From IMG/VR virus record IMGVR_UViG_2703718799_000033: a stretch of DNA of 11,791 nucleotides. One strand, written 5' to 3'. Numbering within the stretch: position 1 is the stretch's first letter; every line of letters starts with the position of its first letter. The position numbers are program-made. Source of the stretch: a virus (Duplodnaviria; Heunggongvirae; Uroviricota; Caudoviricetes). This document shows, in pieces, positions 1 to 3,000 of this stretch.

Positions 1-3000
1 CATTCGCTCACTACAGCTTATCCAACCATCCGGCAACTTGTAAGCCGTCGTTACAGGTTCGGCACCATGAAGCATGGCGGCGATGTTGTTTCTCTTGAGA
101 AAGTTAATACTTTTCAAGGTATCTTCCTCAAGCGTCGAACCGGTGTAGCCATTGGAGCAAGTTTCAGCACGTTTATGATGGTACCTTAATGCAGCAATGC
201 ATTTTCTTATCCCGTCACGGTATATTTCCTCTTCCTCCTCAAGCTCAGCACTGATTTCGACATCCATATCGTGAAGCATTGCTCGCTGCACCTCAGTCAG
301 GGGTACCGGCGCTGGCGGGACGGCGTAGACTTCAATAATCCCATTATCAATAGGCCATTCTCCATCCTTGAGGTAGTCACTTGTGCCGTCAACTTGCTGT
401 TCTGCAATGTGGAATGCACCTATTGGTTTTGCTTCCAGCGATGCCAGAGCAATTCGTGCCAGTTCTTCCGCTTCTTCTGCTGGCAGTACAACGTTGCTAC
501 CAGGTCCGTATGTTTCGCGCCACTGCTTGATTGTCAGTAGTCGCTCTTTGGTTATAGTGGTCATTTGTTAACACTCAAAACTTTATGCCCGGGCGCAAAA
601 GCACGCGTTTTGTCTTTACTTATTCGCCACCCGTCTTTACGGGCCTCTTTTGCACAACCAGACCATGACGTACCGATATACTCACCGAAGTCTGGCACTG
701 GATATACACCTTCCGTACACTGGCGGCAGTCACAATAGAGATGCATGGTGTAACTTGCGGCAATAGCCATATCACTCTCCTTTAGTACGCAAGTGGCTTT
801 TCCAGCGGTTTTGCGCCGCGCTGCGCTTTTTGCAACAACTGTGCCCCATCACACCGCAACACCCCGTCAACCTCACCCGTCTGTTACTAATCCTCACCCA
901 CCGCCAGACACCAACACCGTTTCTGCGAGCTAACAGAATTTTTGCTTTACGGTTTTTCATCGCTTTGCTCTCCTGCGTCTCTTTGCTGCTCGTCGTGCCG
1001 CTGCAATACCGGTATGGCGGCGCTTTGGTGCCGGGATGATGTTGTCAGCCATCAGGACATGTGGCTTTGCAATTAGCGCAGAAGCCCAAAAACGAGTCGG
1101 GTACGGTAACAAGCCGATACATGCCACACGCATTACTCACCTCCTTTGATGCGAATGCCTGTTGCAATGCTGTTTATGATGCTGTCAGTGCATGGGGTAG
1201 AAAGCTGGGCATCTCCAGCAATTTTCATGACCTCAACATCTGCATATCGAATACCGAGGTGTATCAGACCGGCTATGCCTGACTTAAGCCGAGCATTTTC
1301 CATAAATAGAACTTTTGCCCGCTGTTTTTCTGCTTCAAGCTCAACGCGCAGCTTCCCTACCGTTAGCGCAATATCCTCGTTCTCCTGATCGCGGCTTTTG
1401 ATGTATTGCAGGTTTCTTTCCCGTTCATCCAGTAGTGCCAGCACGGTTTCTGGTCCGGTCAGAAATTTGAAGGCGTTGAGCGCATCAATATCCACACCGT
1501 AATCTTTAAGTTCCTGTTCACTTAACAAATCATCATCAACTGGCAACATTAACAGGCGTTCCATTGCTGGAGTTGCACGTTCTGCCGCCTCACGCAGTGC
1601 CTGGTAATTAATTTCGCTCACTGGTTGCCTCCTTTGCGAAGCTCTGCAGCGAAATATACAGCTGCGGAAACAATAGCTGCATGTCGGTATTCACCATCAG
1701 AAAATAAAGAATCTCCCTTAAGTGCATTGACGATACTCTGATGATTTTTTGCCAGCATCTCCACGCCCTGCGCACGTACTTCAGCCAGAAAAGCATCGGT
1801 GGCTGGAGTTTCGCTGTGGTGTAGGGCATCGTTGATAATCATTGCAGCAACACCAGCCTGCCCTGCATCCGTGACCGACACATGCTCAAGAGTTACGGCC
1901 ATTGCGTGTTTCAGTCCGGCATTCTCCGCCGCCAGCGCCGAAAACTTCTCGTGTGCCAACTTAACAGCCGAATCAGCCTGCTTAATTGACTCAATCGCTT
2001 TCTGCTGGTCTTCGGCCAGCGCATTAGCACGCACCAGTTGCACTTCCAGTTGCGTTGCCAAATCGCTGATCAGCTTTGCCACACTGCGCATATCAACGGC
2101 ACCACATTCTGCTTTCAGTTCCGAAGCCATCTCATGCCCGGCGGCAACTAACCCTTTGATATTACTTTCCATCTTTACCCTCGCTTATCCACATAACTTA
2201 TTGATTACATTGATAACTAAAAAGATCGTCGATTCAGAACTCTTCGATATTCCAGCCACCACCTGCTTTCTTTGGTTTAACCGTTACCCCGATGATTCGG
2301 AACGGATACTGATCTGCGGCGACTTTGGTTTTCACCCTGGCGTCGTCGGTCCAGAAACCTTTCACTTCGTGCAGTTCCATCTCGCCGGTGGCGAGCATCA
2401 CAGCAAAATCGGGCGTATAGAACGTGTTGTCAGCTAACCGAAGCTTGATACCCTCAAATCGATACCAGACGATTTCTCCTGCACGTTTACGCAGCTCAAG
2501 GTGCTGGCAATACGCAGATTCTGTTTTGTTCATCTGGCCTGTTTTGAGTCGACCAAGAGCCTGTATCTGTTTTCTCATGATTTACCCCTGAGGTAATTAA
2601 AAACCACATAAGACACGAAATCAATAGATTTTAGAATATTTTATTACCTAACAGGTAATTATCGAAACGTAAAAAAATGCGCTATCGCGCTGGTATTACT
2701 TGATAAATCCTTCCGCCTTTCCTCGCCTGTATTCCTCCATCAGCCACTGCGCCGGTGTTATTCCCCCAAGGGTGGCGGCGTTAGGCATGCACCCGAAACT
2801 TCGCCCTGGTGGATGGTAAACGTCTCTCCCTGTGTCCGGAGGCGTACTCATGGGTTCTGGCTTTGCCTGTATGCTGATCACCGGATCGGGTATCTGCTGT
2901 CCGGAAGCCACCTTTTTCGCCCAATCATCGAGCAGCCTGCGCGCGTGTTTCTCAACCTCTATCTCGCTAAGCTGGCGCTGATACATTGCACGGCGGGTAT

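Follow-up and report, generated by a model that had tools for sequence, protein, structure and literature searches.

The DNA considered here is a viral stretch of 11,791 nucleotides (nt) (IMG/VR record IMGVR_UViG_2703718799_000033; hereafter the window), which by its sequence is the early region of a temperate podophage or prophage of the phiV10/epsilon15 type (Uetakevirus). Window positions 1100-5700 are 97% identical to phiV10 and have matches in 380 phage records. The gap between the replication gene P and the gene for a DUF1064-family protein, read on the minus strand, is probably a self-contained, repressor-gated early-transcription cassette that drives a nuclease gene and, behind it, an Eae-like and an Ead/Ea22-like gene. 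Two copies of the operator motif found at the phage promoters pR and pL bracket a candidate promoter in the geometry of pL, the arrangement is conserved among related phages, and the gene for the predicted cognate repressor lies in the same window. The cassette is real but is an ordinary, conserved and partly annotated trait of this phage family. Such a cassette would explain how genes located 3' of the replication module are kept silent during lysogeny and become active at induction, in a phage family in which a terminator follows each early unit.

Operators, terminator and their conservation

The operator motif ATTACCTNNNAGGTAAT was searched for in the window with up to three mismatches allowed, with 200 shuffles as a control. 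Six matches were observed compared to 0.38 expected, none of the 200 shuffles reached six, and all six copies fall within intergenic regulatory gaps. Two of them lie between P and the DUF1064 gene and are 17-bp palindromes of the type ATTACC-N5-GGTAAT. The upstream operator (O-up, ATTACCTGTTAGGTAAT, 2643-2659) is a perfect palindrome without mismatches to ATTACCTNNNAGGTAAT. The downstream operator (O-down, ATTACCTCAGGGGTAAA, 2581-2597) has two mismatches, and its centre and right arm form AGGGG (2589-2585), the Shine-Dalgarno sequence of the DUF1064 gene. The remaining copies are located past the terminator of the cro-like gene (4589-4605), in the pR region (4974-4990), and at pL (5686-5702 and 5748-5764); inspection by eye added two further copies in the pR region (4957-4973 and 4926-4942). 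The putative operators O-up and O-down are therefore the same motif as that at pR and pL. A full-text literature search for the operator sequences returned no match, and no Rfam family overlaps 2234-2700. Regulation by LexA was rejected, as matches to CTGT-N8-ACAG are at chance level in the window (7 versus 4.2 expected), with none inside the gap.

The pL cassette (5686-5764, plus strand) provides the reference architecture: operator 5686-5702, -35 hexamer TTGACA (5721-5726), -10 hexamer AATTAT (5744-5749) and operator 5748-5764. The centre-to-centre distance between operators is 62 bp both at pL (5694/5756) and in the gap between P and DUF1064 (2589/2651). The two loci align colinearly as hairpin and T-run, operator, ATCTATTGA containing the -35 hexamer, 17 nt, -10 hexamer and operator. 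In the gap, the candidate -35 hexamer TTGATT (2619-2624, minus strand) is found within an invariant CTATTGA that is common to pL, and a 17-nt spacer leads to the candidate -10 hexamer TTTAAT (2596-2601), with a predicted start at about 2588-2590. The last two bases of the -10 hexamer are the first two bases of the second operator at both loci, such that TTTAAT stands in the same register to O-down as AATTAT does to its operator at pL. The two loci differ in that pL has the consensus -35 TTGACA and a -10 hexamer with an A at position -11 (A-11), whereas the candidate has neither. The pL-like layout of two operators around a promoter, as originally predicted, is thus recovered in motif, 62-bp spacing and order. 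Direct control of the promoter by the repressor is likely, since the operators match those of pR and pL, the geometry copies that of pL, and the register of the hexamers is kept in divergent relatives; the weak element of that claim is the -10 hexamer, which is poor in this lineage.

The weak terminator expected behind P is present at 2671-2690 on the minus strand. It consists of a 4-bp GCGC stem (2690-2687 and 2682-2679) closed by a GATA tetraloop, followed by an A and a run of seven T residues (2677-2671). The 35-nt stretch 2666-2700 is predicted to fold at -8.4 kcal/mol (z = -2.3) into a structure that includes a 4-bp outer stem. The terminator was not called by the terminator scanner because a 4-bp stem falls below its threshold of five pairs. 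The hairpin and T-run are nonetheless invariant in seven lineages and in 66 sequence variants, and the phiV10 record annotates the homologous site as a putative terminator, the only part of the cassette annotated in that record.

The cassette is found in phiV10, TL-2011b, Tyrion (Enterobacter), epsilon15, BUCT554, Klebsiella phage ST512-KPC3phi13.3 and SPC32H, in 35 phage records overall, and together with the DUF1064 gene in 531 of 5,426 complete E. coli genomes; the phage family is thus carried by about one in ten of such genomes. Invariant across lineages are the hairpin with its seven T residues, both half-sites of both operators, AAAAT past O-up, CTATTGA, and T.TGG.T.T.AATTACC. The bases 5' of O-up, the operator centres and much of the sequence between the operators vary. 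Within a set of 88 loci, comprising 80 IMG/VR loci with an identical repressor and the reference phages, 62 bp is the dominant spacing between sites (166 pairs), and 78 of the 88 loci contain two such pairs. An entropy profile of a 423-nt stretch in 66 distinct variants of equal length placed the operator centres among the most variable columns, while the half-sites, the -35 hexamer, the spacer and the -10 hexamer were essentially invariant. Invariant half-sites and hexamers combined with variable centres are the footprint expected of real protein-binding sites and a constrained promoter. In the same variants, variability at the operator centres (2648-2652 and 2586-2590) and over about 10 nt before O-up exceeds that of synonymous sites in the genes on either side, even where the repressor of the phages is identical. 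This excess could stem from unconstrained drift, from exchange between copies of the operator or from adjustment of affinity.

More distant relatives retain the design with different sequences or spacing. A Cronobacter prophage, whose repressor is 48% identical, keeps a 62-bp operator pair behind P. The 45 nt between its operators are otherwise unrelated, yet TTGTTT and AATTAT occupy the positions of TTGATT and TTTAAT, and AATTAT is also the -10 hexamer of pL. In Yersinia and Serratia relatives, the same junction contains a terminator and TTGAAA, and a pair of neighbouring operators with a spacing of 18 bp immediately precedes the next gene. These loci indicate that a repressor-controlled restart of transcription past the replication genes is a family trait whose geometry differs between members. 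In SPC32H, the same cassette likewise precedes a DUF1064 gene, and its operators are spaced by 62 bp.

The RefSeq record of epsilon15 (NC_004775.2) annotates four "repressor" sites, three at pL and one (protein_bind, 35906-35922) that is homologous to O-up. This site has the same ATTACC-N5-GGTAAT sequence, is preceded by the same GCGC hairpin and seven T residues, and is followed by the same CTATTGA...AATTACC layout. The epsilon15 record differs from the cassette described here in that only the upstream site is annotated, without a promoter and without the second operator (35968-35984). The neighbouring genes differ as well: the downstream gene encodes a RuvC-type protein rather than DUF1064, and the upstream gene encodes a DnaT-like initiator rather than P.

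Promoter candidates and competing explanations

The candidate TTGATT-17 nt-TTTAAT matches 9 of 12 consensus positions and lacks A-11. It was not called by a consensus scanner, which missed TTTAAT (2601-2596) because there is no A at the second position of the hexamer. When a simple position weight matrix (PWM) was applied to the whole window, the candidate ranked 23rd among 117,600 combinations of position and spacer, with pL ranking 3rd, pR 5th and the promoter past the cro-like gene 8th. A TAAATT hexamer with an 18-nt spacer is available only in epsilon15, SPC32H, BUCT554 and ST512. A promoter-like site on the plus strand (2610-2637) was rejected, as its hexamers are not conserved among relatives.

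Several observations weigh against a promoter at TTGATT/TTTAAT under direct repressor control. A-11 is normally the most important base of a -10 hexamer, and a T at this position usually cripples a sigma-70 promoter. The -10 hexamer in the 17-nt register is (T/A)T(T/A)AAT, with T at -11, in all seven aligned lineages. The predicted leader is only about 11 nt, which places the Shine-Dalgarno sequence at the extreme 5' end. The terminator is weak, so that read-through may supply much of the expression of the downstream genes, and read-through probably does contribute. A second promoter candidate in the gap, described below as P-A, has a slightly higher PWM rank. All relatives found, down to 40% identity, share the TTACC/GGTAA half-sites and the NL(V/I)(N/S)RW region of the recognition helix; a heteroimmune contrast, in which operator sequence and repressor specificity would co-vary, was sought in viral contigs, the protein database and the Yersinia, Serratia and Cronobacter loci and was not found, as all keep the same half-site.

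Of the alternatives, the one that survives best is that the operators act without a working promoter. Bound repressor would form a roadblock to read-through, similar to a stoperator, or the operators would serve as auxiliary sites in a loop with OR, at a distance of about 2.3 kb, and the DUF1064 and Ea22-type genes would be expressed only via read-through of the terminator. The missing A-11, the short leader and a terminator stem of only 4 bp all fit this explanation, as does the placement of operators elsewhere: single operators are also found just past other terminators (4589-4605), and operator pairs lie 5' of the terminase gene in relatives. It is nevertheless unlikely. CTATTGA is invariant and stands at the same distance from the upstream operator as at pL, and the Cronobacter prophage keeps the register of the hexamers, with a proper AATTAT -10 hexamer, in sequence that is otherwise unrelated. 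A roadblock would also be of little use once pR itself is repressed, and the design of a terminator followed by a promoter recurs three times in the window. The stoperators of mycobacteriophage L5 block elongation from within transcription units, and these sites are asymmetric and act in only one orientation. Unlike these, O-up and O-down are palindromes placed around conserved -35 and -10 hexamers, and so lack the distinguishing features of stoperators.

Only marginally less favoured, and likewise improbable, is that the active promoter is P-A, formed by TCGATA (2665-2660), a 16-nt spacer and TAAAAT (2643-2638) on the minus strand. O-up would fill the spacer of P-A, O-down would lie at about +45, and transcription would start near 2631 to give a leader of about 53 nt, which would suit translation better than the short leader of the TTGATT/TTTAAT candidate. 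P-A was called by the consensus scan with 9 of 12 matches and has a PWM rank of 11th. Its -10 hexamer includes the A-tract AAAAT (2638-2642, minus strand) abutting O-up; YAAAAT at this place is invariant in seven lineages, and in some E. coli variants the -35 hexamer reads TTGATA. The A-tract could serve as a bend element or as the -10 hexamer of P-A. However, the -35 region of P-A belongs to the most variable sequence and cannot be recognised in Tyrion, epsilon15 or BUCT554, and P-A has no counterpart at pL, where a T-run follows the upstream operator. Either promoter, TTGATT/TTTAAT or P-A, would be controlled by the repressor. It is very improbable that the gap is a non-functional relic, for instance a duplicated pL that has decayed, or that the resemblance is due to chance; similarity to pL and a poor -10 hexamer would fit this explanation, but no shuffle matched the observed motif count, and half-sites and hexamers are invariant across genera where neighbouring intergenic bases vary freely. 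A repressor-gated promoter at TTGATT/TTTAAT thus stands as the likely reading of the gap. The ZX5 paper lists four promoters, which are predicted only and given without coordinates.

The probable nuclease gene and the genes behind it

The first gene of the proposed unit (2234-2578, minus strand) matches the DUF1064 family (Pfam PF06356) with 31.3 bits against a cut-off of 24.7. The encoded protein of 114 amino acids matches PHROG 190, "Holliday junction resolvase" (E = 7e-43), and its predicted fold has an alpha-beta-beta-beta-alpha-beta core (mean predicted local distance difference test score, pLDDT, of 85). The predicted catalytic core comprises E20, D57, E71 and K73; across 27 homologues, all four are invariant except D57, which is nearly so. 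A mutated core would have spoken against a functional nuclease; the core is intact, and DUF1064 is predicted from this model to be a PD-(D/E)XK nuclease. The small core and the E...PD...ExK spacing are like those of both T7 endonuclease I and archaeal Hjc, and for comparison DUF1064 can be grouped with the junction-resolving nucleases of phages and archaea, namely T7 endonuclease I, Hjc, lambda Rap, RusA and phage RuvC. The core residues align with the PD...ExK motif of T7 endonuclease I at a sub-significant level (E = 0.2), and a PDB profile search with the DUF1064 alignment did not recover this match; membership in the T7 endonuclease I family is therefore not claimed. Kosinski et al. (2005) placed DUF1064 in the PD-(D/E)XK superfamily and suggested a role in the degradation of host DNA (PMC1189080).

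The best argument for the function of DUF1064 comes from the gene that replaces it. In epsilon15 and Tyrion, the gene starting at the same GGTAAATCATG encodes a RuvC-type Holliday junction resolvase of 154 amino acids, whereas the slot is filled by DUF1064 in SPC32H, BUCT554 and the E. coli phages. The two genes are exchanged precisely from the start codon on, and the operator and Shine-Dalgarno sequence in front of them are the same (RuvC-type genes at 9988-10452 of locus L005 and 3540-4004 of locus L004); this exchange separates even close Salmonella phages, SPC32H having DUF1064 and epsilon15 having RuvC. Since RuvC replaces DUF1064 in an identical slot, DUF1064 is probably a nuclease acting on branched DNA in phage recombination or DNA processing, and an endonuclease for branched DNA such as Holliday junctions is more likely than a defence gene. 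The predicted fold, the PHROG label and the exchange with RuvC all favour a role in DNA processing over one in a defence system. The block had been regarded as being of unknown function and as a candidate for defence or anti-defence; for DUF1064 this framing is not supported, given the intact PD-(D/E)XK core, the match to PHROG 190 and the presence of RuvC in the same slot. DUF1064 moves from an unknown accessory gene to a probable junction-processing nuclease interchangeable with RuvC, and has a lower priority as a defence or anti-defence candidate. In TL-2011b, where the cassette is intact, the DUF1064 reading frame behind it (L003 4590-4946) is interrupted by stops and includes an N close to the 5' end, which reflects either a pseudogene or a sequencing problem.

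The Eae-like gene (1618-2172, minus strand) begins 61 nt 3' of the DUF1064 gene, without overlap. It matches PHROGs 492, 614 and 368, and its homologue in phiV10 is annotated as eae-like. The Ead/Ea22-like gene (1133-1621, minus strand) matches Pfam PF13935 (Ead/Ea22) above threshold (E = 6e-31, 108 bits). The two genes had been described as overlapping Ea22-like genes. They do overlap, by 4 nt, and share PHROGs 368 and 250, but only 1133-1621 belongs to PF13935, as no Pfam match was obtained for 1618-2172. No minus-strand terminator was predicted between 1133 and 2234.

Repressor, antirepressor and the early region

The gene for the repressor (Rep) predicted to be cognate to the operators is located at 5045-5629 on the plus strand. 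Its product contains two helix-turn-helix regions (Pfam HTH_3) and no S24 peptidase domain according to Pfam, and is homologous to SPC32H Rep (PDB 5d50, E = 4e-42). The published work on SPC32H as summarised in PMC9638917, whose Rep-Ant switch is represented by PDB entries 5d50 and 5d4z, describes the structure of the Rep tetramer, its binding of DNA as a tetramer with DNA-binding pairs drawn from different dimers, and its disassembly by a tetramer of the antirepressor Ant. The window also encodes Ant, in an open reading frame at 9823-10509 on the plus strand (PHROG 377, "anti-repressor Ant", E = 5e-67). The presence of an Ant gene fits a repressor without an S24 peptidase domain, which implies induction by antirepression of the SPC32H type. 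Just 5' of the Ant gene, Rfam reports a match to sRNA-Xcc1 (RF02221; 9722-9811, plus strand; 62.9 bits versus a gathering score of 53, E = 1e-9). The same region contains TTGACA (9791-9796) followed by the palindrome ATCACCAG-N7-CTGGTGAT (9801-9823), and no LexA box is evident there.

A spacing of 62 bp corresponds to about 5.9 helical turns. Since the homologous Rep is a tetramer with two operator-binding units, it is plausible that a single Rep tetramer bridges O-up and O-down and clamps the promoter between them. The cassette would then operate as follows. The weak intrinsic terminator would stop most transcription coming out of the replication unit, and a sigma-70-type promoter (TTGATT 2624-2619; TTTAAT 2601-2596; start about 2589) would restart transcription of a unit with the structure-specific PD-(D/E)XK nuclease DUF1064 first, then Eae, then the Ead/Ea22-like gene. 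The promoter would lie between two 17-bp operators for the SPC32H-type repressor that are 62 bp apart, exactly as at pL, and O-down would extend over the -10 hexamer, the start site and the DNA for the ribosome-binding site. Repressor would occupy both sites in the lysogen, most simply as one bridging tetramer, and hold the promoter in a small loop. Inactivation of the repressor by Ant would allow the unit to fire along with pL and pR. The fixed geometry of operator, promoter and operator over 62 bp is a testable prediction for how a tetramer of the SPC32H type sits on DNA.

As at OL/pL of lambda, operators for the immunity repressor overlap the candidate promoter. In lambda, OL/pL has three adjacent operators that are bound by CI dimers, and induction depends on cleavage of the repressor. 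Here, two operators flank the promoter at a distance of 62 bp, and the repressor, which lacks an S24 peptidase domain, would presumably be inactivated by Ant. The CB operators of N15 and PY54 are found at several early loci, and one repressor, gp71, acts at several loci through the stoperators of mycobacteriophage L5. The arrangement in the window is like these in that one repressor would control several separate early units.

The design occurs a third time in the window, which favours the proposed control. Past the cro-like gene (4660-4890, minus strand) lies a cassette at 4544-4638 on the minus strand that consists of a strong terminator with an 8-bp stem (4638-4619), an operator (4605-4589), a -35 hexamer TTGATC (4572-4567), 17 nt and a -10 hexamer CAAAAT (4549-4544). 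Six lineages share both hexamers without change, which suggests that the replication genes too have their own repressor-gated promoter. In relatives, operator motifs are also found outside the region covered by the window, immediately 5' of the gene for the small terminase subunit (L002 2855-2889; L003 1631-1665; L006 3634-3670; L007 3119-3135; L008, centres 2398/2416). These are mostly two sites 18-20 bp apart, with a single site in L007, so that the repressor may act directly on the late or packaging operon as well.

A broader model can tentatively be drawn, though it is doubtful as a whole. The early genes of Uetakevirus may be organised not as an antitermination cascade of the lambda type but as a chain of terminator-insulated cassettes (pR, the cassette past cro, the gap between P and DUF1064, and the pre-terminase pairs of relatives), each gated by the same tetrameric repressor. 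At pL and in the gap, one tetramer would clamp a 62-bp micro-loop that matches the two "trans" DNA-binding units of SPC32H Rep, and Ant would release all cassettes in one step. A programme of insulated, repressor-gated cassettes with a 62-bp clamp is a more interesting reading than that of a single cassette.

The gene for replication protein P (2696-3496, minus strand; Pfam Phage_lambda_P, E = 1.7e-56) is the last of the replication unit upstream of the gap. It is preceded by the gene for a DnaT/O-like initiator (3478-4293, minus strand) and a small gp42-like gene (about 4309-4509, minus strand). The pL operon, which includes genes for an exonuclease and RecT among others, lies 3' of the repressor gene, and a P4-type integrase gene is located at the right end of the window. 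Within the DnaT/O-like initiator gene, a unit of about 24 nt (ATCCCGTTTTTGGGATCATTCAAC) is repeated four to five times, in tandem or nearly so, at 3890-4039, and these repeats resemble origin iterons placed inside the initiator gene, an arrangement known from lambda O.

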